Of a stretch of 20,000 nt of DNA, positions 166-13,800 are shown piece by piece (positions within the stretch are counted from its first letter, which is position 1; each line of letters opens with the position of its first letter). The stretch is from an uncultured virus (IMG/VR IMGVR_UViG_3300035190_000668) (taxonomy: Duplodnaviria > Heunggongvirae > Uroviricota > Caudoviricetes), in IMG/VR virus record IMGVR_UViG_3300035190_000668, one strand, 5' to 3'. A model generated the notes under the pieces. That model was given only the letters and a program-made list of their open reading frames with translations, made no database searches and was not told the DNA's origin. A program made the translations under genes and the position numbers.

Positions 166-807
166 TTAATGAATCCAGTGTTGTGGAACCATATACTTAA
201 AGCCACTCTTAACTAAGTGTGCTGTATGGTGATATGGAGGCGAAGGAGGGAAAACAATAACGCTTCCTGCCTCTGGCTTTACATAAAACGTAAAAGAATT
301 GTCTTGAGCTTTTGCAAGATCCATATCAGGGTGAGGTCCACCATTATACATTGGTCCGTCAGGTGATCCGATTGTAAATGAAATCTCTCCGCCTTCGTAA
401 TCATCATTTAAGTACATTACAAAAGAAACCTTTAGTCTTTCATCCCCTTCTTGTTGGTCAAAGTGTGCCCCCATGTATGTTCCTGCTTGATACTTCTTAA
501 TAGGGTACATATCAAAAAGTTTTGGTTCTTCTGTAATACCCTGAGCTTTTGCATAGTCTCTAGCTACAACATCAAAAGCATCTTTTAAGGTATTGTAGAT
601 ATAATCATTGTTAGCATCTTTAATTCCCTGAGATTCTGAAGAAGATATGCTTCTATCAGTTCCATACACATAATGCTCCCCGCTGCATGCAGCCCATTCG
701 CCCCAGTTTGTTGACTCATCGCCTTCAATTGCAGCCATTAACTTCTTTGGATCTTCAATTACGTTTGTGTAGTAGTAGACCTTTTCTTCTAGGATGTTTT
801 TATTCAT
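166..807 (-). CDS. 2OG-Fe(II) oxygenase, prolyl-4-hydroxylase-like
   Basis: HFD...YLNDDYEGGEI...FPP...HHTA..V.SG.K: HxD...H iron triad plus a basic 2OG-binding residue. Confidence 0.9.
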   Translation of the reverse strand: MNKNILEEKVYYYTNVIEDPKKLMAAIEGDESTNWGEWAACSGEHYVYGTDRSISSSESQGIKDANNDYIYNTLKDAFDVVARDYAKAQGITEEPKLFDMYPIKKYQAGTYMGAHFDQQEGDERLKVSFVMYLNDDYEGGEISFTIGSPDGPMYNGGPHPDMDLAKAQDNSFTFYVKPEAGSVIVFPPSPPYHHTAHLVKSGFKYMVPQHWIH

Positions 808-820
808 CTGTATTCTCCAT

Positions 821-1483
821 TCATGAGTACTTGTTGTCTTGATAAAAGTTTGAAACCTTTACAAATCCTACTATAACATATCTTATGGGTCCTTCTCCAA
901 CATGCTTAACGCCATGCTCATGCTCTTCATCCCCTGGGAAAAACAGCAAATCTCCTGGTTTTGGCCTCAAAGATATATCAAGATTTGGAAAGAAAATTTC
1001 TCCATCTATATACTCATCGTTTAAATAAATTATAGTGGCATATTTTATTGATGGGTCTGTATGTTGATCTGTGTGAGACTTTAACTCTACGCCTGGCTGC
1101 ATTCTTTGAATTGTTGCAAGTCCGCTCAAGTTTAACTCTGGATCACACTGTGTAACTATATCATTAAGCCTATCATAAAATATTTTTTGTTCTTTATGAT
1201 TTGTAATATTTAAATTTTTATCAACCCAGTTTTGAGTAATTTCAAATTTGCCTTCAGCAACAAGGTTATCAACATCATCTCTTCCAAATTTTTCTAAACA
1301 AAAAATTTTTAAGTTGCTCATATATTCTACTTCCCAATCTGCTTGGGATGCCCCATCTATTATATTTAGAACAAAATCAAGCTCATCTTTGTTTAAGAAG
1401 TTTTTTATACAAATTATATTATTTGTAATTTCTTCAAATATAAAGTTGTCTTCTTTAAGTTTTTCCTTAAAGGTTTCAAGCAT
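821..1483 (-). CDS. 2OG-Fe(II) oxygenase, prolyl-4-hydroxylase-like
   Basis: HTD...YLNDEYIDGEIFFP...HGV..V..G.IRY. Start placed at ATG 1483, which overlaps the upstream stop; 1495 is an alternative. Confidence 0.9.
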   Translation of the reverse strand: MLETFKEKLKEDNFIFEEITNNIICIKNFLNKDELDFVLNIIDGASQADWEVEYMSNLKIFCLEKFGRDDVDNLVAEGKFEITQNWVDKNLNITNHKEQKIFYDRLNDIVTQCDPELNLSGLATIQRMQPGVELKSHTDQHTDPSIKYATIIYLNDEYIDGEIFFPNLDISLRPKPGDLLFFPGDEEHEHGVKHVGEGPIRYVIVGFVKVSNFYQDNKYS

Positions 1484-2231
1484 TTGGAATCTCATCAGAC
1501 TTGTACTTATTTCCGTCCTTGTCTAATTTCCAGCCTTGCTTCAATAGCTCTTGCCACTCTGCTCTTTCAATTTCTTGCTTTGCCCTAGTTTCTTTCATTT
1601 CTGCTGCCCAAGCATCTCTAACTTCTTGAGGGTAAGCATCTTCTTCTCTATCATCCCAAAAAGATCCTATAGTATATCTTACACCACTAGTAATAAGAGA
1701 TACTTCGTGCATATTATTAAATCCTCCGTCAAAAACAGCAAGCATTCCAACCTTTGGTTGAATCTCTATATTTTGATCTGGGAATCTAAGAAGTCCGCCT
1801 TCAAATTCATCATTAAGGTATAAAAATCCAGCATATCTACTTCTTGTAAAAGCACCAGAGTTTCCGTGCTCATCAGTGTTGTCAGAATGTACTCTAGCGT
1901 ATGCTCCTGGCTCCCATTTTTGTGTATGGTATCCAATCTTTGAAATTATTTTTGGGTCAAGATCATGTACTGATGCAATTGCTTCTGGCATTATTTTTTC
2001 AATATCTGAAAAAATTGTTGGTACCAAACCAGCGTCAACAACTTCTTGATCATTGTCTTGTGGTAGCACAGATGAGTATGACTCATAAAAAGATATTGGC
2101 ATCCAAGAAAGCTTGCCATTTTCTGCCTGAGCATCTAAAGCATTAACCATTTTTTGACACTCTTCTTTACTTATAAAGTCTTCATAAACAACTATGTCTT
2201 TTGTTAACCTTACTTTATTATCTAGGTTCAT
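1476..2231 (-). CDS. 2OG-Fe(II) oxygenase, prolyl-4-hydroxylase-like
   Basis: HSD...YLNDEFEGGLLRFP...HEV..ITSGVRY; ATGA overlap with the upstream gene. Confidence 0.9.
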   Translation of the reverse strand: MNLDNKVRLTKDIVVYEDFISKEECQKMVNALDAQAENGKLSWMPISFYESYSSVLPQDNDQEVVDAGLVPTIFSDIEKIMPEAIASVHDLDPKIISKIGYHTQKWEPGAYARVHSDNTDEHGNSGAFTRSRYAGFLYLNDEFEGGLLRFPDQNIEIQPKVGMLAVFDGGFNNMHEVSLITSGVRYTIGSFWDDREEDAYPQEVRDAWAAEMKETRAKQEIERAEWQELLKQGWKLDKDGNKYKSDEIPNA

Positions 2232-3094
2232 TTGATCCTTCTTTCTTTTTCGGCACTGATTTTATTTGGATGATCATCTCTAAACTTTTGCATAATGTCT
2301 GGCTGCATTTCTGCCCAAAGAGCAGACCCAAACTCTTTTTCTTTTTCAAACCATTCGGCATCTCCAGGGGAGTACTTCATCCAGTACATTCTTGATAAAT
2401 ACTTATTTGATCCAGTGGCTGGCATTACTCCATGAAGATATACGGACCCATTCTTTTTTAATATATCTGGGTGACCTGATGGGAACACCAAAAAATCTCC
2501 CGCCTCTGGCTTATACATGTAGGCTTCTCCATCAACTATAAAGTCAATCTCTCCACCTTCATAGTCATCATTAAAATAGGCAAGTGCCGTTATTGCAAAC
2601 TTATATCCTGGACTAACGATAGGCTCTCTAATATAGTCAGAGTGGTATGTCATTGCAACTTCATCCTGAATGTCTGTTCTATACCTTGCAATTGAAGGGC
2701 CAGTCATTCTCCACTCTTTTATGGGCTCTCCGCTATTTGTTAAAACATCTCTTTCTGTGTCAAAATCAACATTGTTTTTAACGGCATAGTCTTGTGTTAC
2801 TAAATAAAAGTTTTTAAATAGTTCTAAAATTGCTAGCTTTTGTTTTTCTTGTTTTTCTGTTTTTGTTTCTATAGCCTCAATATACTCTATTGAAAGACCG
2901 TGTGGATGATTTGCAAAAGTTGGGTTTAGGTATGTACCAAATAGTGACCACTGTGTCCAAGGACTAAACAAGCCATCATCTTCTCCATTAGAGTTTTTTA
3001 GTTCTGAATATGTTGAATCTATATCTTTAAAAACATTCTTGTATACAAAAATTTGAGGATAGATTTCAATTGGATCTAAAACTTTTTCTGTCAT
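2228..3094 (-). CDS. 2OG-Fe(II) oxygenase, prolyl-4-hydroxylase-like
   Basis: HSD...YFNDDYEGGEI...FPS...HGV......KY. Start moved from 3130 to ATG 3094 (MTEKVL), which gives an ATGA overlap with the upstream stop. Confidence 0.88.
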   Translation of the reverse strand: MTEKVLDPIEIYPQIFVYKNVFKDIDSTYSELKNSNGEDDGLFSPWTQWSLFGTYLNPTFANHPHGLSIEYIEAIETKTEKQEKQKLAILELFKNFYLVTQDYAVKNNVDFDTERDVLTNSGEPIKEWRMTGPSIARYRTDIQDEVAMTYHSDYIREPIVSPGYKFAITALAYFNDDYEGGEIDFIVDGEAYMYKPEAGDFLVFPSGHPDILKKNGSVYLHGVMPATGSNKYLSRMYWMKYSPGDAEWFEKEKEFGSALWAEMQPDIMQKFRDDHPNKISAEKERRIK

Positions 3095-3765
3095 GGCTTT
3101 CTGTCTCCTGTATGCTCTGTTATTTCCCAAAAGAAAGGACAGGTATATCTAACTCCACTCTTAATTTCTGTTACTCCGTGAATATAATTCATATCACCTG
3201 GGAAAAAATAAGCAGCGCCTTTCTTGGGCTTAAACTGAACACCTTGTTTTGGGAAGTATAACTCTCCACCTTCATAATCTTCATTCAAATAAAACAGACT
3301 TGACAGATCATAGTTTGGAAAATCGTTTGGAAGTCCAGCATCTGGACCTTCGTGCAGTTCTTTGTCTGCGTGAGGGTTTTGAAACTGTCCTGGAAGCCAT
3401 CTAACAATTGTTGTTCCAGTTGGAATAACTCTTACTTTATAAAACTCTTCAACAATTGGCTTTAGTCTTTGAAACAAACCTGCAATAATTGGAGCAATAG
3501 CTGGATCATTTTTATCTAAAGATGGGCTTGTGCAAACTCTATCTTTCCAATAATCAGAGTCATAGACAACTGTTCCATTTTCATTAACATGACTTTCTGT
3601 TACATCCCATATAGTTAAAGATTTTGCAGCTTTTTCTAAAAACTCCATCTCTTCTACAGTCATAAAATTTTCCAGCTCAACGATCATGTCTTTCCCATCA
3701 CCAAACCAACCAGAAGGGGTTAAAGATGGCTTTCTAACCACAACAGATGCATTTATATTATCCAT
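3091..3765 (-). CDS. 2OG-Fe(II) oxygenase, prolyl-4-hydroxylase-like
   Basis: HAD...YLNEDYEGGELYFP...HGVTEIKSGVRY. Confidence 0.9.
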   Translation of the reverse strand: MDNINASVVVRKPSLTPSGWFGDGKDMIVELENFMTVEEMEFLEKAAKSLTIWDVTESHVNENGTVVYDSDYWKDRVCTSPSLDKNDPAIAPIIAGLFQRLKPIVEEFYKVRVIPTGTTIVRWLPGQFQNPHADKELHEGPDAGLPNDFPNYDLSSLFYLNEDYEGGELYFPKQGVQFKPKKGAAYFFPGDMNYIHGVTEIKSGVRYTCPFFWEITEHTGDRKP

Positions 3766-3767
3766 AA

Positions 3768-4499
3768 TTAGATTATACCATTTCCTTTGTTAGTACGACT
3801 ATCAATCACAGAAAGCCTTAAAGCCTTTACTTCGTGACTACCCAAAGATTCTCCTTTTTCATTTACTGCATCTCTATACCAGTCGGTCCATGATCCAGAA
3901 GAGTTTACAACTTGTGCTGCAGTTCCATAGGAAACATTTGCATCCATTCTTTTTCTATCTTCGTCTTTGTAGTCAAGTATCTCAATAGAAGAATTGTTTA
4001 GGGTTGATAAAGAAATGGGTATTATTGTTGCCAATGGAGTATGTGCTTTAATTGTTACTTTTTCCCCTGACTTTTTTGCTTTTATTGCAAGTGGCAAGGG
4101 ATTATCATAAAAAGATGTACTGATAAGGTTAGACATAGTTTCAAAATCATTGCTAAAAAAGTTTACTGGGTTTATGGTAAGCATGCTTATGTCTTCAGAT
4201 GTTCTAAAAACTAATCCCGTGTTTAGGCTTATGGTTGACTGACCTCTTCCACCGTAAGAACCTTCTGGTGCTTTAATTATCTCAATATGATCTTGAGTTT
4301 GATCGTTTATGCCATCCCAAACAAACTCTATGTCTTGGTCACAAGAAAGGCTCCAGCCAACCACATTTGATTGTGTTACTGGAAAGCACCTATATGCGTG
4401 ACCTTCTGATGTTTCATCCATCCAGTCTCTTTTTATTGACATTGGCAAAATACTAAATGATGAACCATTCATCTTTTCAGCAAATATATTTAACATCAC
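3768..4499 (-). CDS. DUF6065-like protein
   Basis: KRDWMDET...HAYRCFPVTQSN..GW motif resembles DUF6065; P.ATIIPI near the C-terminus; no HxD...H triad. Confidence 0.65.
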   Translation of the reverse strand: MMLNIFAEKMNGSSFSILPMSIKRDWMDETSEGHAYRCFPVTQSNVVGWSLSCDQDIEFVWDGINDQTQDHIEIIKAPEGSYGGRGQSTISLNTGLVFRTSEDISMLTINPVNFFSNDFETMSNLISTSFYDNPLPLAIKAKKSGEKVTIKAHTPLATIIPISLSTLNNSSIEILDYKDEDRKRMDANVSYGTAAQVVNSSGSWTDWYRDAVNEKGESLGSHEVKALRLSVIDSRTNKGNGII

Positions 4500-5155
4500 T
4501 CTGCCTCTGGAACGTACATCTCTGGAGTATGAAACTTTTTGTTATAGTCTAACATCGTAACAATTGAATATTTTGTTCCTGATGTTACTGGCATTGCTTT
4601 ATGTGGATACATAAAGTTTGAAGGGAATATATAGAGATCTCCAGCTTTTGGCTTAATCTTTAAGTCTTGTAACCTAAAGTACAATTCTCCACCTTCGTAA
4701 TCATCGTTTACATATGACACTAAAGAAACAGTACAGTTATAAGAAAACCCGTGGTCGTGGTGCTCCTGAAAATGTTGACCTGGGCCATACTTGATAAAGT
4801 TAAAAGCTTCCCAATACTTTAAATCCATAATGTTATAGTCTTTTCTATAGTCTTCAACTGCTGGGGATTGTGCATCATATACATCTTGCCACAGTGATTG
4901 AAGATTTAAAGATGTCTGACTCTTATCTTGCTCAATATCTGTTTTTTTAAATTTAAAGTCATTGCAGTCTCTATATTCTGGCATTAACTGTTGGTATCCT
5001 ACATAGGCAGGAAGCCAACTATATCCAGTTTTATCTCCTACTGGCTTTAAGTTAGACTCTAATCTTCCTATTACGTCAATATCACTTTTGATTACATCTC
5101 TATAGCAAACAATACCGTTGCCTAGATTTTCTTTTGAGCTCCAAGTGTTCATCAT
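4496..5155 (-). CDS. 2OG-Fe(II) oxygenase, prolyl-4-hydroxylase-like
   Basis: KYGPGQHFQEHHD...YVNDDYEGGELYF...FPSNFMYPHKAMPVTSGTKY. Confidence 0.92.
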   Translation of the reverse strand: MMNTWSSKENLGNGIVCYRDVIKSDIDVIGRLESNLKPVGDKTGYSWLPAYVGYQQLMPEYRDCNDFKFKKTDIEQDKSQTSLNLQSLWQDVYDAQSPAVEDYRKDYNIMDLKYWEAFNFIKYGPGQHFQEHHDHGFSYNCTVSLVSYVNDDYEGGELYFRLQDLKIKPKAGDLYIFPSNFMYPHKAMPVTSGTKYSIVTMLDYNKKFHTPEMYVPEAE

Positions 5156-5161
5156 TACCCC

Positions 5162-5941
5162 TTATTTATATTCTCTTCTAGTCCAGACATGGTTTTTATA
5201 AATACCGCCATCTGGTTGACGGTAGAATTTCATGTTATTCATCATTTTATCATAAATTTCTTTGTCTTTTAAAAATTCTAACTTATGATCCCAGTTTTCT
5301 CTTTTAAAAGGAAGGATCTGCAAGTATGGTGTTCCTGCTGGTATTGTTCCTTCCCAATCTTTTGCTATAAAAAACGGAAATGTTCCTAATAGATGAACCT
5401 TGTCGCTATCTACAATTCCTGTTGTATTCATAAAAGGTAGATCAAATCTATTCATTGGAGTCATAAACAAAGCGCTGTATCCTTCAGGTAGCTCTATGCC
5501 CCATCCTGAGTACCAGGCAAAGTGATCTTTATAAAATCCTTCTGGATGCTCAAACTGAGGCATTGCAAGTCTTCTTGTACAGAAATCTTTGTTTTTAGGA
5601 TCATCAATTTTTACATCTATTGATCCTTCTGGTGTTTTAAAGAATGTAATATCACATGGTGTTTTTAAAACATACCCTGTTGAAAAACCATCCATAATTG
5701 CTGGGCATGCCTTCCAAGTTGGTATCTTTCCGTAATCATCTGTAGTTCCTTCTTTTGGAAAGGGACACACCTCTTTAGGTGCTTTATAGTATTCACCATT
5801 AGGCATTTTTGCAAATCTATCTGCATCTTTATACCATTTTGGAATTTCATTTTGTGTTGGAGTCGGAACTGATGGGTTTTCAGAATTTACCCAAGATCTA
5901 TAAGATCTAAATATTGCAGTCTGCGATATTTGTTCAGTCAT
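5162..5941 (-). CDS. Conserved phage protein, DUF6065-related (IPxWYK...KxCP type)
   Basis: IPKWYK...TWKACPAIMD...GY...P.NRFDLPF...GIVDSD...GTPYLQILPFKRENW; TAATG coupling to the upstream gene. Confidence 0.55.
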   Translation of the reverse strand: MTEQISQTAIFRSYRSWVNSENPSVPTPTQNEIPKWYKDADRFAKMPNGEYYKAPKEVCPFPKEGTTDDYGKIPTWKACPAIMDGFSTGYVLKTPCDITFFKTPEGSIDVKIDDPKNKDFCTRRLAMPQFEHPEGFYKDHFAWYSGWGIELPEGYSALFMTPMNRFDLPFMNTTGIVDSDKVHLLGTFPFFIAKDWEGTIPAGTPYLQILPFKRENWDHKLEFLKDKEIYDKMMNNMKFYRQPDGGIYKNHVWTRREYK

Positions 5942-6654
5942 TACTTATGACCTATCTCATTTATATCTGTCATAATAACAACACAATATTTTGTACCAGA
6001 CTCCATTGGAAGTGAGGCATGCTCATAAATATAGTTTGATGGAAATACTGCTATGTCTCCAACTCTTGGTTTGTATACCAAGTTATCTAGTCTTGGAAAC
6101 TTTAAATCCCCGCCAACATAGTCATCATTTATATAGATCACAGCAGAAACTGTGCAATTATAAGCAGGCCCATGGTCTGCATGAATATTAAAATGTGTGC
6201 CAGCACCTTCATATTTTACAAAGTTAAAAGCTTCGTAATACACTACATTAATGCCCCAATACTGTGCATAATCATCTATACAATACTTTAGTTTTTGATA
6301 AATTTCTTCATGCAGATCTATTAATTCAGAGTTATACTCATCTCTTGGCCCTAAGTTTTCCTGTTTATATTTAAAGTCTACTGCGTCCCTTGCTTTTTTA
6401 ATTGGAACTGTAGAGTTTGTTACTTGTGCTTCTGACCACTTATACTTGGAACCAGTTGACAAATTGGACTCAAGGGTGTTGATATATCTTTTTGAATCCT
6501 CTAAAGAAAATGTGTTGTGGTACACATGTAGACCTAGCCCTAAATTTTCAACAATAAATCTATTGTCTAGCACTCTTTCGGGCACTCTGTTTGATGCTGT
6601 CTCTGACCTGTCTTTTGTAAACCATGGGTTTTCATTTTCATTGTAGATATCCAT
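5941..6654 (-). CDS. 2OG-Fe(II) oxygenase, prolyl-4-hydroxylase-like
   Basis: HAD...YINDDYVGGDLKFP...FPSNYIYEHASLPMESGTKY. ATG 6654 follows GGGGTGG; GTG 6663 is an alternative. Close paralog of 4496-5155 (shared EAFNF.KY and YNCTVS). Confidence 0.92.
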   Translation of the reverse strand: MDIYNENENPWFTKDRSETASNRVPERVLDNRFIVENLGLGLHVYHNTFSLEDSKRYINTLESNLSTGSKYKWSEAQVTNSTVPIKKARDAVDFKYKQENLGPRDEYNSELIDLHEEIYQKLKYCIDDYAQYWGINVVYYEAFNFVKYEGAGTHFNIHADHGPAYNCTVSAVIYINDDYVGGDLKFPRLDNLVYKPRVGDIAVFPSNYIYEHASLPMESGTKYCVVIMTDINEIGHK

Positions 6655-6674
6655 TGTTACCACCCCTTTATTTT

Positions 6675-6731: not shown

Positions 6732-6974
6732 TTAAGATTCTTTTCCCCATTTTCCAATAGGGCACTCCGCAATTTTAAGTGTCGTCTTTGCTTTCATAAT
6801 ACATCCACACTGTGTGCATTGAGTTGTTATTTTCATAAAATGATCACAGGACTTACATATTTCAAACCTTTTGTCTATTATTTCTTTATCTGTTATCCTG
6901 GCATCTGAATCTAACAAGTGCCAAGGCCTAGATGAGCCAATATTTTTTTTCCAATTTTCCCACGCCTCAGACAT
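6732..6974 (-). CDS. Small Cys-rich protein, DUF6171-like
   Basis: R..ICxxC...CxxCGC.M.xK......CP..KW pattern. Confidence 0.65.
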   Translation of the reverse strand: MSEAWENWKKNIGSSRPWHLLDSDARITDKEIIDKRFEICKSCDHFMKITTQCTQCGCIMKAKTTLKIAECPIGKWGKES

Positions 6975-6976
6975 TT

Positions 6977-7420
6977 TTAACTATCTAAATGCTGTGTAAG
7001 AACAGTGCCGTCCCAATTAAAGGTTTGTCCAATTGGATTTATTATATCTAGTGTATATTTAACCAAAATTGTTTCCCCCGAAAAAGCTGCCTCAAACATT
7101 TCTGAATCAGGAGAATTTATTTTCATGGTTGCTGAAAAAACTACCTTATCGTCACACAAAAAAACATACCTATTAATAGTATCAAGATATTCATTATCTA
7201 GCGGTGTTCCTAGATTAATGTTTCCACCAGTAAATGAAGTACCGTCCCACGTTGCTCCTCTTACTGCAGATGTTTTATGTTCTGCTGCATTCATTCCAGT
7301 TATTGGAAGTCCTGTTTCAATTGCTGCATCTAAAACCGTTGTATCGTGTTCAGGACTAAGAATAACTTTTTTAATGCAATCCCAAGTGTTGTTACTATTT
7401 TTTGTTAGTATAGCGTACAT
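6977..7420 (-). CDS. Hypothetical protein with two WDGT motifs
   Basis: 147-aa ORF with an AGGAG RBS; GATWDGTSFT and GQTFNWDGTV suggest an internal duplication. Confidence 0.7.
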   Translation of the reverse strand: MYAILTKNSNNTWDCIKKVILSPEHDTTVLDAAIETGLPITGMNAAEHKTSAVRGATWDGTSFTGGNINLGTPLDNEYLDTINRYVFLCDDKVVFSATMKINSPDSEMFEAAFSGETILVKYTLDIINPIGQTFNWDGTVLTQHLDS

Positions 7421-7457
7421 AAGGTTTTTCTCCTTTTATTAAAGTATATCATATGCA

Positions 7458-8567
7458 TTAGTAGTAACATCCACCACATAATGACTGGCATGTAGAAGAA
7501 CAGTTCCATGGTGGTGCATAGCAGTTAGCTCCACAGTTAAAGCTTGTAAAGGATGGAGGGAAGAATGGGAAGAACGGTGGGAAGAATGGGAAGAACGGGA
7601 AGAATGGAGGCGGGAAGTATGGAGGGAAGAAAGGTGGGAAGAACGGTGGGAAGAATGGGAAGAACGGTGGGAAGAATGGGAAGAACGGTGGGAAGAATGG
7701 TGGGAAGAAAGGAGGGAAGAACGGGAAGAATGGAGGGAAGAACGGTGGGAAGAACGGTGGGAAGAATGGCGGGAAGAAAGGTGGGAAGAACGGGAAGAAC
7801 GGTGGGAAGAATGGGAAGAACGGTGGGAAGAATGGTGGGAAGAAAGGAGGGAAGAACGGGAAGAATGGAGGGAAGAATGGCGGGAAGAAAGGAGGAAAGA
7901 ATGGTGGGAAGAATGGAGGGAAGAACGGAAAGAATGGGAAGAACGGAGGAAAGAATGGACCAAAAGTAGAAACTACACCATTACTTGCTGCAGATGCAGG
8001 AGATGTTCCATTTGCATTTGTTGCGGTAACGGTATAAGTATAAGTTCCAGCAGTAACTTCTGTAATAGATATTGGTGTTGTTGTATTTGTTGCTGTTCTT
8101 CCAGAACTTGATGTAGCTGTAAAAACTGTTACTGTTTTATTACCTGTATTATTTGCTGTAAACGGAACAGACACTACACCAGAAGTTCCTCCAGATGCTG
8201 TTCCAATAGTTGGAGCCTGTGGTTTTGCAGTTGGTACAACCGCTCCTGATGCACTAGATGCTCCAGAAGTTCCCATTGCATTTGTTGCGGTAACAGTAAA
8301 AGTATATGATGATGCAGGAGCTGTATTTAGTCCTGAAACAACTATTGGCGATGAAGATCCTGATCCAGTAAGTCCTCCAGGAGAAGATGTAACTGTGTAG
8401 CTTGTTATTGGAAGTTTACCATCAAAGCTTGGGGCAGTAAAAGTTACAGATACCTGTCCAGCGTTATATGTAAGATTTGTTCCTACATCTGTACCAGTCC
8501 CAATTGTTGGTGGTAGCGGTGCTGACTTGCTTTGTGACTCAACAACACCAGGCTTTTTAGGACTCAT
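7458..8567 (-). CDS. Protein with two fibronectin type III-like domains, a 135-residue Pro/Phe tract and a Cys-rich tail
   Basis: Two P.PTIGT...V.V.FTA...YTFTVTATNA.GTS.AS.AS repeats; residues 204-338 are only P and F (one Y); the 31-aa tail has 6 Cys. Confidence 0.85.
   Translation of the reverse strand: MSPKKPGVVESQSKSAPLPPTIGTGTDVGTNLTYNAGQVSVTFTAPSFDGKLPITSYTVTSSPGGLTGSGSSSPIVVSGLNTAPASSYTFTVTATNAMGTSGASSASGAVVPTAKPQAPTIGTASGGTSGVVSVPFTANNTGNKTVTVFTATSSSGRTATNTTTPISITEVTAGTYTYTVTATNANGTSPASAASNGVVSTFGPFFPPFFPFFPFFPPFFPPFFPPFFPPFFPPFFPFFPPFFPPFFPPFFPFFPPFFPFFPPFFPPFFPPFFPPFFPPFFPFFPPFFPPFFPPFFPFFPPFFPFFPPFFPPFFPPYFPPPFFPFFPFFPPFFPFFPPSFTSFNCGANCYAPPWNCSSTCQSLCGGCYY
7554..7958 (-). repeat. 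Coding minisatellite of 9-nt (FFP) and 12-nt (FFPP) units
   Basis: 405 nt of ggg/aag/aa(t/c)-type units on the plus strand, including an exact 86-nt duplication (7657-7742 = 7792-7877). Confidence 0.95.
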
Positions 8568-8574
8568 GTCAGTA

Positions 8575-8583
8575 ATTGTACCA
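8575..8583 (-). promoter_or_regulatory. Extended -10 promoter, probably giving a leaderless mRNA
   Basis: TGGTACAAT followed by 7 nt and then ATG 8567; no SD sequence. Confidence 0.6.
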
Positions 8584-8608
8584 CATAAATAATACAGTTT
8601 TTCATATT

Positions 8609-9334
8609 TTACCTAACACTTACATATATAGAGTGAGCTACCATTGAGCATGGGTTATCCGTTAATATTTCTGGATATGCCCCAGAATCTTTCATTTTTT
8701 CGCTATCAATAAACAAGGTTTGTTCAAGGGATAGGTCATAGTCAAATTGATATTTTAGATTTCCCGCATACCCCACAACTGGATATGACCCTGGGCTAAA
8801 TGTCCTAAAAAGGACCTCTGTGTTATTGCTAAAGGTTGTTATTGTTATATCATAACGAACAGTTATAATTGATCCAACTTTGATATTTTTAAAATTAAGT
8901 TTTTGTGCTTTTGGGTTATATAGTGCAACATGGTTTTCTGGTAAGTAGTCTTCATTGTTTTTACCCTTGCAGTCTACACTAAATTTAACCCAACCATCAT
9001 TACCACAAGCAGCTCCAAGCTGAATACTGTTTTTATTTAAATTTGAATAATGTGCCCAACCATGTTTTTGTCCAGATAAAGATAGAACGCTTTCTCCAGG
9101 TATGCCATCTATGCCGTTCTTTCCGTCTTTTCCAGGCTTTCCAGGATCTCCTTTAGGTCCTTGCTTGCCTTCTGGCCCCTGCAGGCCCTGTAGACCGTTA
9201 TCTCCTTTTGGTCCACGTTCTCCTTGAGGTCCAGGTACAGCTATAAAAGAAACTGGCTGCTCAAGTTGATAGTTATTGTTTATTGTTTCAGAATATTTTT
9301 TTGGACTGCCTGGAAAATCCATGCTCTTTGCCAT
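8609..9334 (-). CDS. Collagen-like (Gly-X-Y) protein, probably a virion fibre or decoration protein
   Basis: 16 consecutive G-X-Y triplets (GPQGERGPK...GIPGES) followed by a beta-rich domain. Confidence 0.8.
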   Translation of the reverse strand: MAKSMDFPGSPKKYSETINNNYQLEQPVSFIAVPGPQGERGPKGDNGLQGLQGPEGKQGPKGDPGKPGKDGKNGIDGIPGESVLSLSGQKHGWAHYSNLNKNSIQLGAACGNDGWVKFSVDCKGKNNEDYLPENHVALYNPKAQKLNFKNIKVGSIITVRYDITITTFSNNTEVLFRTFSPGSYPVVGYAGNLKYQFDYDLSLEQTLFIDSEKMKDSGAYPEILTDNPCSMVAHSIYVSVR

Positions 9335-12022: not shown

Positions 12023-12628
12023 ATGCATGATGAATTAAAAAATACTTTAATAGGTGGTTTGCTAGGAAAGCTGGCAATCCATCATTCGGTATATCGTTTA
12101 CCGTGTACAAGTGAATATCTAGAAGAACTTGTATCTGATGTGCTAAACGAAAACGGTATGCCAAATGACTGGAAGCCTGATAGAAGTCATAGCGTCAGTA
12201 TAGACATGACTTTAGAGTCAGGTGAGAGTATATCCGTCAAGTCAGGAAGATATGATCCAGATAAGGCTACATTGGTTATATCTGGGTCTAGGCTAGGCAA
12301 ACACGAGACATTGGAGAAGATGGTAGAGTCTGTTGCTTCTACACATGCTGATTACTATGTGTGTTTAGCCAAAGCAGACCAGGATTGGTCTCATATCCCG
12401 TCAAAAAATGAGATCAAGACATATCACCTATTTGTATTTGAAGCATCCAAATTAGATTATGGTTTTGAACATTGGTCAAGAAAAGAATCTAAGCATGGAA
12501 AAGGTTATAAATATGTAATGGATATACCAGGTATGTCAGCTACTATACGTCCTACTATGTCTCATCAGTTGTGGACTACTGTATCTTGTGATATCATTGG
12601 TATACCGACAAAATTGGAGATACTGTGA
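12023..12628 (+). CDS. Putative PD-(D/E)xK-fold nuclease-like protein
   Basis: E..EE helix, then SID......ISVKSG (D...SxK variant) and ADYY. The ORF is solid; the function is tentative. Confidence 0.45.
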   Translation: MHDELKNTLIGGLLGKLAIHHSVYRLPCTSEYLEELVSDVLNENGMPNDWKPDRSHSVSIDMTLESGESISVKSGRYDPDKATLVISGSRLGKHETLEKMVESVASTHADYYVCLAKADQDWSHIPSKNEIKTYHLFVFEASKLDYGFEHWSRKESKHGKGYKYVMDIPGMSATIRPTMSHQLWTTVSCDIIGIPTKLEIL

Positions 12629-12822
12629 GCGACGATGTTCGTCCTTGGGATCTAATTAATGGATCACCTAGGAGCCCTGAAGAGCTTTCAGAATACCGTT
12701 TAGAAATATGTAGAAGCTGTGAATTCTTTCGTAAAAGAACTCAAACTTGTAGACAGTGTGGGTGCTTTATGAAACTTAAAACGACACTAGAACACGCTAG
12801 CTGTCCAGAAAAGAAATGGTGA
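12625..12822 (+). CDS. Small Cys-rich protein, DUF6171-like (paralog of 6732-6974)
   Basis: RPWDL...RLEICRSCEFF...CRQCGCFMKLKTTL..ASCPEKKW; GTGA overlap with the upstream gene. Confidence 0.7.
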   Translation: MSDDVRPWDLINGSPRSPEELSEYRLEICRSCEFFRKRTQTCRQCGCFMKLKTTLEHASCPEKKW

Positions 12823-13024: not shown

Positions 13025-13220
13025 ATACTACTATAAGCCAATTCTGAGTATAGTATCAGAAAGTTATTTGGAAAATGCTAAAAAAGAATACGCCCCTCCA
13101 GTAGACATTGAAACAAGTGTAAAGCTTGTTGTTGAGGCAGAGACTGAAGAAGCATCTTACGAAACACTTTACGGCTTTGTTGATATCCGAATGTGGGAGA
13201 TAGACAAAGTTGAAGATTAA
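13017..13220 (+). CDS. Hypothetical protein
   Basis: TTG start preceded by AGGAGG; overlaps both neighbours. Confidence 0.65.
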   Translation: MPKYYYKPILSIVSESYLENAKKEYAPPVDIETSVKLVVEAETEEASYETLYGFVDIRMWEIDKVED

Positions 13221-13800
13221 TAGAATTTCTCCAGACCTTTACGAGATTGAGGATTTTGTAACTGTTGAACAACAGGTAGAGGTTCTGGAGTTTTTCAAGT
13301 CTTTAGACGAACAAGCCTGGTGGACAACACCAGAAGGACATGAGCAGCACGGGTTTTTCTATGGAAAACAATATCATGATAAGCGCCCAGATGTTTTTAA
13401 TCAAATAACTTCAAATGTTAGAAACCTTTTTAGCACATCTTTGTACATAGGAGATATAGGTTTACAAAGATATAAAATTGATGAAGCTATGCAAGAGCAC
13501 AGAGACTACTGGTTATATGATGAAGATTATCATATTAGGTATGGAATTGCTATTTACTATAACGATGACTACGAAGGTGGCGAAATCAGCTACCCCGAAC
13601 TAAATATTGTTCACAAGCCAAAAGCAAGATCTTTATTGATGCATGGTGGAAATATACTTCATGGAACCTTGCCTGTTACAAGCGATGATACAAGGTTTTT
13701 CTCAACAGCTTTTGTTAGAGGATCAGTTGAAAGTCCAGTTACCTTAGATCCAGAGTTGTTTGCTGAAGTTGAACTACATGACGGATCTAGTTATACATAG
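13210..13800 (+). CDS. 2OG-Fe(II) oxygenase, prolyl-4-hydroxylase-like
   Basis: HRD...YYNDDYEGGEISYP...HGTLPVTS..TRF. Confidence 0.88.
   Translation: MKINRISPDLYEIEDFVTVEQQVEVLEFFKSLDEQAWWTTPEGHEQHGFFYGKQYHDKRPDVFNQITSNVRNLFSTSLYIGDIGLQRYKIDEAMQEHRDYWLYDEDYHIRYGIAIYYNDDYEGGEISYPELNIVHKPKARSLLMHGGNILHGTLPVTSDDTRFFSTAFVRGSVESPVTLDPELFAEVELHDGSSYT

Follow-up and report, generated by a model that had tools for sequence, protein, structure and literature searches.

Chlorovirus PBCV-1 encodes a prolyl 4-hydroxylase (P4H; solved structure 5c5t) along with long Pro-rich repeat proteins, which we take to be the substrate of that enzyme. In phage fibre systems such as lambda Stf-Tfa, T4 gp37-gp38 and Mu S-U (Caudo_TAP), a variable C-terminal tip is exchanged together with a small gene directly downstream. 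Here, we analyze a locus that resembles both kinds of system, located in a 20,000-nucleotide stretch of DNA (hereafter, the window) from the 50.5-kb record of an uncultured Caudoviricetes virus (IMG/VR IMGVR_UViG_3300035190_000668). An original prediction, made by a model from the letters of this stretch, had singled out a 135-residue tract composed of Pro and Phe with a single Tyr. We find that this tract lies between two fibronectin type III (FN3) domains and a Cys-rich tail, that it is conserved in frame across a family of lake phages, and that its gene is followed by an array of P4H-like oxygenases (Table 1). The tract is probably the stalk or linker of a fibre-region protein with an exchangeable tip, and its prolines may be hydroxylated by the products of the array.

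Results

An In-Frame Phe/Pro Tract under Selection

Translation and a regular-expression scan place the tract at residues 204-338, exactly where it had been predicted, as an unbroken F/P/Y run of 71 Phe, 63 Pro and 1 Tyr. It consists of one leading P followed by 24 FFPP, 11 FFP and 1 YFPPP units, in which Tandem Repeats Finder resolves nested periods of 12, 21, 45 and 135 nt. Since Phe and Pro make up only 4.4% and 3.9%, respectively, of the codons outside the tract in the viral record, a chance origin is excluded. Gly, which occupies every third residue of a collagen triple helix, is found at 0 of the 135 positions, and the tract is therefore unable to form such a helix; the protein likewise has no Pfam Collagen match.

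To place the tract in its family, we used the best 80 of 205 relatives in viral contigs, corresponding to 77 distinct loci. An in-frame F/P/Y tract of 14-145 aa is present in 76 of these, the sole exception (L072) being an FN3 protein with a different architecture. The N-terminal domains diverge down to ~40% identity across relatives, yet an alignment of 47 sequences shows little or no variation in the first ~20 residues of the tract. Where the tracts of relatives admit another residue, it is mostly Tyr and occasionally Ser, Gly, Ala, Thr or Val, often near the C-terminal end. Among the three 45-codon blocks of the window's tract, 6, 7 and 31 of 90 comparisons are mismatched at codon positions 1, 2 and 3, respectively. 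Furthermore, nine equal-length ortholog pairs, some of which share a member, differ within the tract by 41 synonymous and 9 non-synonymous changes, 7 of the latter stemming from one 71%-identical pair.

The tract is also set apart by its codons. In the window, Phe is encoded by 68 TTC and 3 TTT codons in the tract, compared with 0 TTC and 8 TTT in the remainder of the gene and 81% TTT in the remainder of the record, and CCG provides 17 of the 63 tract Pro codons (27%) versus 2% elsewhere. The other Pro codons are CCA (31) and CCT (15); CCC, which the original prediction had listed among them, does not occur. Comparison of tracts with the rest of the same genes in 66 unique genes reveals the same switch: TTC:TTT is 2159:292 in the tracts and 163:417 in the rest, TAC:TAT is 63:9 and 113:291, CCG accounts for 519/1963 and 40/951 Pro codons, and CCC occurs 18 and 26 times, respectively. 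TTC outnumbers TTT in 66/66 tracts and in just 6/66 flanks. The longest homopolymer run in the window's tract is 3, where genome-preferred codons would yield 35 runs of six T. Because the third positions of Pro codons are free to vary within these units, and because drift at the 36% G+C of this genome should favour T, these data point to selection at the nucleotide or decoding level.

tRNA-Pro is prone to +1 frameshifting at CCC-N, and the decoding of UUC and UAC involves full Watson-Crick pairing. The choice of TTC, TAC and CCG, with CCC and T-runs avoided, would keep both DNA and frame stable in an otherwise slippery repeat, and such stability may be the reason for the bias. Programmed frameshifting within the tract was considered and dropped: the other frames are open, yet the codon choice removes slippery runs. 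Two further open reading frames (ORFs) cross the repeat in other frames, at 7439-7963 on the minus strand (174 aa, Ser/His/Arg-rich) and at 7553-7969 on the plus strand (138 aa, Gly/Arg/Met-rich); the comparison with homologs, none of which uses them, identifies them as shadows of the repeat.

Taken together, the in-frame conservation, the codon-position mismatches, the excess of synonymous changes and the codon switch mark the tract as clearly a coding element under selection, and they bear out the earlier view that selection on the protein, rather than pure DNA slippage, maintains it.

Logan contigs from four lake-water runs (X1, X2, X3 and X7) provided a check independent of the original assembly. 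Exact contigs reach into the tract from both sides, covering 7000-7587 in all four runs and 7815-9000 in three (from 7952 in X7), and the flanks and both tract ends are reproduced letter for letter in the four runs. No contig of these runs spans 7588-7814. The unit count of the window's tract therefore derives from the original assembly, whereas that the tract exists, where it starts and stops and in which frame it is read do not hinge on that assembly. Each of the four indels listed for overlapping lake-run contigs measures 3 nt. The summed word depth over 7536-7937 in these runs reaches 100-2268, compared with 5-20 on the flanks, and a depth so raised within the tract (10 to 100 times that of the flanks) indicates that tract-like DNA is present in many other genomes of the same lakes. 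Of the 24 run rows listed as holders of the stretch, 22 contain a substantial part of it; 21 of these are lake-water metagenomes, and the other bears just the label 'metagenome'. No RNA run is listed among the holders.

A protein search of 5.8 billion sequences returned at least 2849 matches at E 1e-5 or better, which we did not count as tract proteins because many share the FN3 part alone; the source names among them are only 'Fibronectin type III [uncultured Caudovirales phage]' and automatic labels. In cultured phages (INPHARED), with the low-complexity filter on, neither megablast of 7 kb nor tblastn of the whole protein, its FN3 part or the DUF6065 neighbour gave a match, which does not establish that relatives are absent there. 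Among representative prokaryote genomes there are at least 8 relatives, all detected via the FN3 part, and the Phe/Pro tract is found in 0/8 among the matches listed. A 114-kb contig in a Saccharibacteria metagenome-assembled genome bin (L084, ~11837, minus strand) has an FN3 relative and a short PPFPPFPPFPP run on the opposite strand, and may be a phage contig in the bin.

The family also contains variants of the repeat. In three relatives (L065, L071, L077), a (Val-Gly)n run of 14-16 residues, a second two-letter tract, stands between the Phe/Pro tract and the Cys-rich tip. A 'short' clade (L040, L046, L047, L050, L051, L068, L078, L110, L119) has two tandem genes, each with one FN3 domain and a short Phe/Pro tract, in place of one two-FN3 gene. 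One relative's repeat (L148 and L116) is broken by Cys into (FCPFFPP[RV])n units ahead of a Hint-like end.

The Tract Follows Two Beta-Sandwich Domains and Recurs within Larger Proteins

Structural prediction with AlphaFold2 (AF2) and the family alignment yields two beta-sandwich domains at about aa 20-200 with a predicted local distance difference test (pLDDT) above 90, a tract at pLDDT 50-62 with no helix or strand, and a tail below 50. Foldseek searches with the FN3 part retrieved, with E down to 4e-19, FN3 proteins of uncultured phages and, from cultured ones, minor tail proteins of Microbacterium, Arthrobacter and Streptomyces phages. Pfam, AF2 and Foldseek thus agree on the FN3/Ig-like beta-sandwich that characterizes the FN3-domain class of phage tail and fibre proteins. 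The N-terminal 20 residues may form an attachment segment. No solved structure resembles the tract, the best match, the RNA polymerase II tail (E 1.1), not being significant. Pro at every third or fourth residue rules out a regular helix or sheet, and we infer that the tract is an extended polyproline-II-like or disordered chain. A homotrimer prediction for aa 115-369 scored 0.00, which speaks neither for nor against self-association.

A second scan used a degenerate DNA pattern for the tract alone, independent of FN3 homology, and identified 77 further loci with 80 tract ORFs. Most of these (62) stop less than 80 residues past the tract, 14 continue for 80 or more, and 4 leave the contig. Six of the 14 continuing ORFs are larger proteins or have a further domain past the tract (237-1561 aa). 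A Pfam scan of five of the six (all but L139) detected FN3 or Ig domains in four: they follow the tract in L134 and L120, precede it in L112 and lie elsewhere in L100, and L093 has no match; none of the large internal-tract proteins has a PHROG match at 1e-6. Two complete genomes, of 109 and 114 kb, carry two separate tract loci each. Because the tract is also internal in large proteins and occurs at two loci in each of these genomes, a stalk or spacer module is favoured over a C-terminal anchor or a peptide precursor. The layout of two FN3 domains, tract and variable tail, together with the use of the same tract to link Ig-like domains elsewhere, leads us to read it as the extended stalk or linker of a fibre-region protein. 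The spacer between FN3 domains and C-terminal tip that had been proposed for the window is in keeping with this architecture, which is found in 76 of the 77 loci.

The Tail Is Exchanged Together with Small Downstream Genes

Four classes of tail follow the tract in the family: Cys-rich peptides of several patterns, short Gly/hydrophobic ends, basic ends and long Hint-like domains. Mapped on a tree of the N-terminal domains (57 rows), the class has changed 13 times or more, and starred branches force at least 7 of these changes. In relatives whose FN3 part is 85% identical to that of the window, the tail DNA and the two small genes after it (p147 and DUF6171) have no counterpart, and homology restarts at the first oxygenase gene. 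The original prediction had held that homologs reading the repeat in other frames, or lacking the Cys-rich tail, would count against it. No homolog uses another frame, and the tail is indeed replaced in many: among 64 unique proteins, with four or more Cys defining a Cys-rich tail, 31 have non-Cys and 7 have long tails. This loss identifies the tail as a swappable module and does not undermine the reading of the tract.

A p147-like or DUF6171-like gene lies directly downstream on the same strand in 24/26 proteins with Cys-rich tails, in 0/31 with non-Cys tails and in 0/7 with long tails. Of 7 phylogenetically independent contrasts, 6.8 point in the same direction and 0 in the opposite one (sign test p 0.016). 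A small downstream gene thus co-varies with the C-terminal tip. For six proteins without an adjacent accessory gene, the sole accessory is a DUF6171 paralog encoded on the opposite strand, 2.6-3.8 kb upstream. A second DUF6171 paralog is also present in the window (12625-12822, plus strand), and such an upstream, opposite-strand paralog recurs in relatives whatever their tail class.

The DUF6171 protein has six invariant Cys residues (C40, C43, C53, C56, C58 and C71). For p147, no Pfam match was obtained in 14 members, Foldseek against the Protein Data Bank gave none at E 0.001 or better, and the best VIA-align Z was 3.9. In the BFVD viral structure library it matches only two uncharacterised phage proteins, and its nearest named clusters by language-model features are tail fibre assembly proteins, with scores (0.75-0.80) that provide a lead only. 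In the AF2 model of p147, a hairpin, helix and strand at aa 2-44 recur at aa 82-121, which suggests an internal duplication. The Hint-like tails of L021, L074, L076, L033 and L057 have Hint/intein matches below Pfam cut-offs; the window's protein ends 31 residues past the tract and lacks the post-tract domain of ~140-180 aa starting with Cys that is expected of such elements.

The Cys-rich tip with its p147/DUF6171 cassette resembles, by analogy, a fibre tip with its assembly factor, a parallel that had not been foreseen. Because a variable tip with a co-varying downstream gene matches that pattern, it supports a view of the tail as the business end and of the tract as the shaft.

A Conserved Oxygenase Array Lies Downstream of the Tract Gene

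The genes that follow the tail cassette encode mainly PF13640 oxygenases, whose profile finds prolyl 4-hydroxylases as the closest solved proteins (bacterial 5iax, E 2e-14; PBCV-1 5c5t, E 2.6e-11). The HxD...H iron triad is kept in all ten PF13640 paralogs of the record. In the first locus set, the array lies downstream on the same strand in 69 of the 70 loci with at least 2 kb of downstream DNA, 67 of them having two or more genes, and it lies upstream of the tract gene in 0/60 loci. Its orthogroup order, A-A-B-(C)-D-(E-H), is conserved among relatives, which argues that the paralogs are not redundant copies. The pattern-only set concurs: the array is downstream of 65/73 eligible ORFs, and 6 of the 8 exceptions are internal-tract proteins. 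Of five records whose tract gene has no adjacent array, four have it elsewhere. Conversely, a complete 107-kb relative with an FN3 homolog devoid of tract contains neither the tract pattern nor an oxygenase.

The collagen-like gene upstream of the tract gene was considered as the constant partner of the array and dropped, since most loci with the array have no such gene within 6 kb. Because the array co-occurs with the tract across loci, the collagen-like gene is mostly missing and the tract-less genome is also array-less, the tract is the most constant partner of the array. As in collagen- or PBCV-1-type P4H substrates, a Pro-rich repeat is here encoded along with HxD...H P4H-type enzymes. 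The tie between tract and array is, in these genomes, a correlation within related phages with one negative control. A further PF13640 oxygenase is encoded at 13210-13800 on the plus strand, opposite to and a few kb from the tract gene.

Genomic Context and Predicted Host

The tract gene is the last gene of a tail-fibre block. The genes upstream of it in seven loci, each from a different clade, have PHROG matches to tail fibre, minor tail, baseplate connector and major head families; the collagen-like gene is upstream only in the window's clade and in the short-form clade. The coordinates of the locus are collected in Table 1.

Table 1. Features of the tract locus in the window, with the evidence for each.
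Feature	Coordinates	Strand	Description	Evidence
Tract gene	7458..8567	minus	369 aa + stop: N-terminal segment, two FN3 domains, Phe/Pro tract, Cys-rich tail	ORF list, translation
N-terminal 20 residues	8508..8567	minus	Ahead of FN3 domain 1; conserved within clades	AF2 confidence low to middling; alignment
FN3 domain 1	8238..8507	minus	About aa 21-110	Pfam fn3 E 3e-6, 27.8 bits (cut-off 25); AF2 strands pLDDT >90
FN3/Ig-like domain 2	7959..8237	minus	About aa 111-203	AF2 strands pLDDT >90; weak Pfam Ig_J, E 0.0075, below cut-off
Phe/Pro tract	7554..7958	minus	aa 204-338; three 45-codon blocks	Regular-expression scan, repeat analysis
Cys-rich tail	7461..7553	minus	aa 339-369; 6 Cys, C-x3-C-x7-C-x3-C-x3-C-x2-C	Translation
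p147, accessory gene	6977..7420	minus	147 aa; only beside Cys-rich tails; no Pfam family	AF2 pLDDT 86.8, predicted template modelling score (pTM) 0.81
DUF6171 protein	6732..6974	minus	80 aa; tied to Cys-rich tails	Pfam PF19668 E 4.8e-7, 30.5 bits (cut-off 27)
Nine-gene oxygenase array	166..6663	minus	Seven PF13640 prolyl-4-hydroxylase-like oxygenases, DUF6065 protein (3768-4499), phrog_7084 protein (5162-5941)	Pfam, PHROGs
Collagen-repeat tail-fibre-like gene	8609..9334	minus	241 aa; upstream of tract gene	Pfam Collagen E 3.5e-10; PHROG tail fibre families

Another part of the record (L081, record bases 22400-42399, and L082) encodes a WhiB protein (E 2.4e-11, above the cut-off) and PstS, as well as an AhpC-type peroxiredoxin, a thioredoxin, a glutathione-peroxidase-like protein, a CHAP endolysin, three glycosyltransferases, an Asp/Asn beta-hydroxylase and a JmjC-like cupin. 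The record also has a gene for a mycobacteriophage Gp88-family protein. WhiB serves as an actinophage marker in freshwater metagenomics, according to an excerpt of PMC6802176, and WhiB together with the lake-water holders of the stretch makes a freshwater actinobacterium the likely host. The tRNA genes of the record are Asp, Met, Ile-tat and Arg-tct. The many Pro-Pro pairs had prompted the suggestion of a search for tRNA-Phe, tRNA-Pro or EF-P in the rest of the genome; none is encoded in the 50.5-kb record.

Discussion

These results indicate that the tract is probably the stalk or linker of a fibre-region protein with an exchangeable tip. It would act in this role in the fibre-region proteins of lake phages, probably with actinobacterial hosts, and in the window's gene it would join two FN3 domains to a small six-Cys tip, with gain and loss of FFP and FFPP units setting stalk length. 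As their most likely activity, the oxygenases of the array would hydroxylate tract prolines, making a water-insoluble Phe/Pro chain more polar and stiffer, a polyproline-II-type rod. The chances that the array does hydroxylate the tract seem to us a little under even, and the explanation as a whole, with a selected Phe/Pro stalk, a swappable tip cassette and downstream oxygenases hydroxylating the tract, falls just on the credible side of an even bet. A bolder picture is tentative, and we lean against it: lake actinophages might make, on the ribosome, a Phe/Pro polymer that five to nine dedicated oxygenases, acting as a fixed series, convert into a rigid rod, hydroxylated and perhaps also glycosylated or cross-linked. 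Several fibre proteins of one virion would use this rod as a stalk of tunable length, and its exchangeable mini-tips would each have their own maturation factor.

Several observations weigh against the proposed stalk and its hydroxylation. The pLDDT of the tract in the AF2 model also fits plain disorder, and the middle of the tract is bridged by no independent contig. Two Cys-tail proteins (L053, L059) have no accessory gene at all, and p147 has no homology to known fibre assembly proteins detectable with Pfam, Foldseek or VIA-align. The fifth record without an adjacent array, a 26%-complete fragment, yielded no array, and one tract locus (L145) has none within 6.9 kb, though its record contains one elsewhere. 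The tract-less, array-less control is a single genome, and the synteny may mirror shared ancestry only. Aquatic phages with no known Phe/Pro tract also bear 2-oxoglutarate (2OG) oxygenase arrays, and such enzymes need not have this substrate. Lastly, presence in the virion, extended shape and hydroxylation are all deduced from genes.

Some of these points favour an alternative in which the tract is a stalk or linker and the array is unrelated to it, acting instead on a small molecule, a host protein or a phage protein such as the collagen-like fibre. Adjacency may be inherited, since the gene order is conserved in one phage lineage; in the window, moreover, a collagen-like protein with Pro in G-X-Y triplets, the classical P4H target, is encoded just upstream, and the record has more hydroxylase-type genes away from the tract gene (13210-13800, two in L081, the Asp/Asn beta-hydroxylase and the JmjC-like cupin). 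We nevertheless regard this alternative as unlikely, if worthy of weight: the collagen-like gene is not within 6 kb in most loci that keep both tract and array, tract-bearing records have the array even where it is not adjacent, the sole complete tract-less relative is also array-less, and a chain of Phe and Pro only would be hard to keep soluble unmodified.

The unmodified tract could also be a greasy adhesive or membrane-active element, a Phe-rich surface adhering to the host envelope or to particles or inserting itself there, rather than a passive spacer. Its extreme hydrophobicity, with Phe at 71 of 135 residues, would suit that role, some relatives' proteins end in the tract or only 1-8 residues past it, and the Hint-like domain that follows it in others (below the Pfam cut-off) could cleave itself off, so that the tract becomes a free C-terminus. 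The same tract is, however, internal between Ig-like domains of large proteins, and elaborate swappable tips with accessory genes suggest that the tip, not the tract, meets the target; Pro at every third or fourth residue also precludes a transmembrane-type helix. We consider this role rather improbable.

Less probable still is a reversed polarity, in which tract and tail would anchor the protein in the capsid or tail and leave the FN3 domains exposed, as in Hoc-like decoration proteins. Ig-like and FN3 domains typically serve as exposed decorations, an upstream neighbour matches a head-decoration PHROG in one relative, and a hydrophobic tract could bury against other virion proteins. An anchor should be conserved, yet the tail is the most variable part of the protein, with its many class changes, and it is the N-terminal 20-30 residues that are conserved within clades; a tract length ranging from 14 to 145 aa also suits a spacer more than a docking surface.

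That the tract is an assembly artefact or a functionless slippage product has almost nothing to recommend it, given that, for all the short-read contigs that break at 7588-7814 and the two remaining frames that are likewise open across the repeat, the tract is in frame in 76/77 independent assemblies, all listed indels are whole codons, drift is mostly synonymous (41 vs 9), the tract-specific codon switch recurs in 66/66 genes and both ends are letter-exact in four runs. The proposal that the tract is a precursor of small ribosomal Phe/Pro peptides of the antamanide or cyclolinopeptide A type, both of which contain PPFF, scarcely merits credence either, as Pfam finds no peptidase, prolyl oligopeptidase, macrocyclase or other cyclase among the 106 ORFs of the record, the units are neither short cores flanked by recognition sequences nor separated by them, and the tract is always fused to folded domains in a structural gene block and also serves as an internal linker.

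The stalk reading, if correct, would matter in several respects. Few unexplained genes of aquatic phages are as common as the 2OG-Fe(II)/P4H-like arrays; with a conserved, expressible candidate substrate, their function becomes directly testable, and a hydroxylated rod would give these arrays their first natural substrate and represent a so far undescribed biological material. A selected segment of more than 100 residues built of two amino acids is unusual protein chemistry that may interest work on polyproline and aromatic self-assembling materials, and the codon switch offers a clean natural example of codon choice guarding a slippery repeat. The cassette of tip and accessory genes hints at how these phages may vary fibre binding, a point of relevance to microdiversity in the most abundant freshwater bacteria. 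The literature searched, with supplements unopened, contained no paper on a Phe/Pro tract in a phage, FFPPFF-type strings appearing only in Amanita cyclic-peptide and unrelated papers, and nothing on DUF6171, DUF6065 or their Pfam numbers; an excerpt of PMC10611076 names 2OG oxygenase in general terms only.

Comparison with Known Systems

With PBCV-1, this locus shares the encoding of P4H-type enzymes and long Pro-rich repeat proteins by one virus. It differs in having 7-10 ordered paralogs instead of one enzyme, in a repeat of Phe and Pro only, with no charged or small residues, and in its bacterial host. Collagen-like phage fibres and the P4H of Bacillus anthracis (5iax/3itq/5hv0) offer a second parallel, since extended Pro-rich fibre segments are common to both, the array finds its closest solved matches in these enzymes (E about 2e-14) and a collagen-repeat gene lies next door; unlike collagen, the tract has no Gly and mixes 3- and 4-residue units.

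The exchange of a variable C-terminal tip with a small gene directly downstream likens the tail cassette to Stf-Tfa, gp37-gp38 and S-U. Here, however, no homology of sequence or fold to those systems was detected, the tip is a Cys-rich peptide of 25-50 residues rather than a folded receptor-binding domain, and the second accessory is a six-Cys DUF6171 protein.

Two further likenesses are functional. Plant extensins and mussel foot proteins also combine Pro with aromatic residues in repeats whose properties depend on hydroxylation, a resemblance that does not imply homology, and glycosyltransferase genes are found nearby in the present record. In contrast with these proteins, the tract has no Ser-Pro4 or Lys/Tyr-rich motifs, and its modification is a prediction. 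Like the Pro/Thr linkers of cellulases and the TonB spacer, the tract connects folded domains through a low-complexity, Pro-rich segment whose length varies; those linkers are hydrophilic, whereas the tract is about half Phe, extends to up to 145 residues and begins with a stretch conserved position by position.

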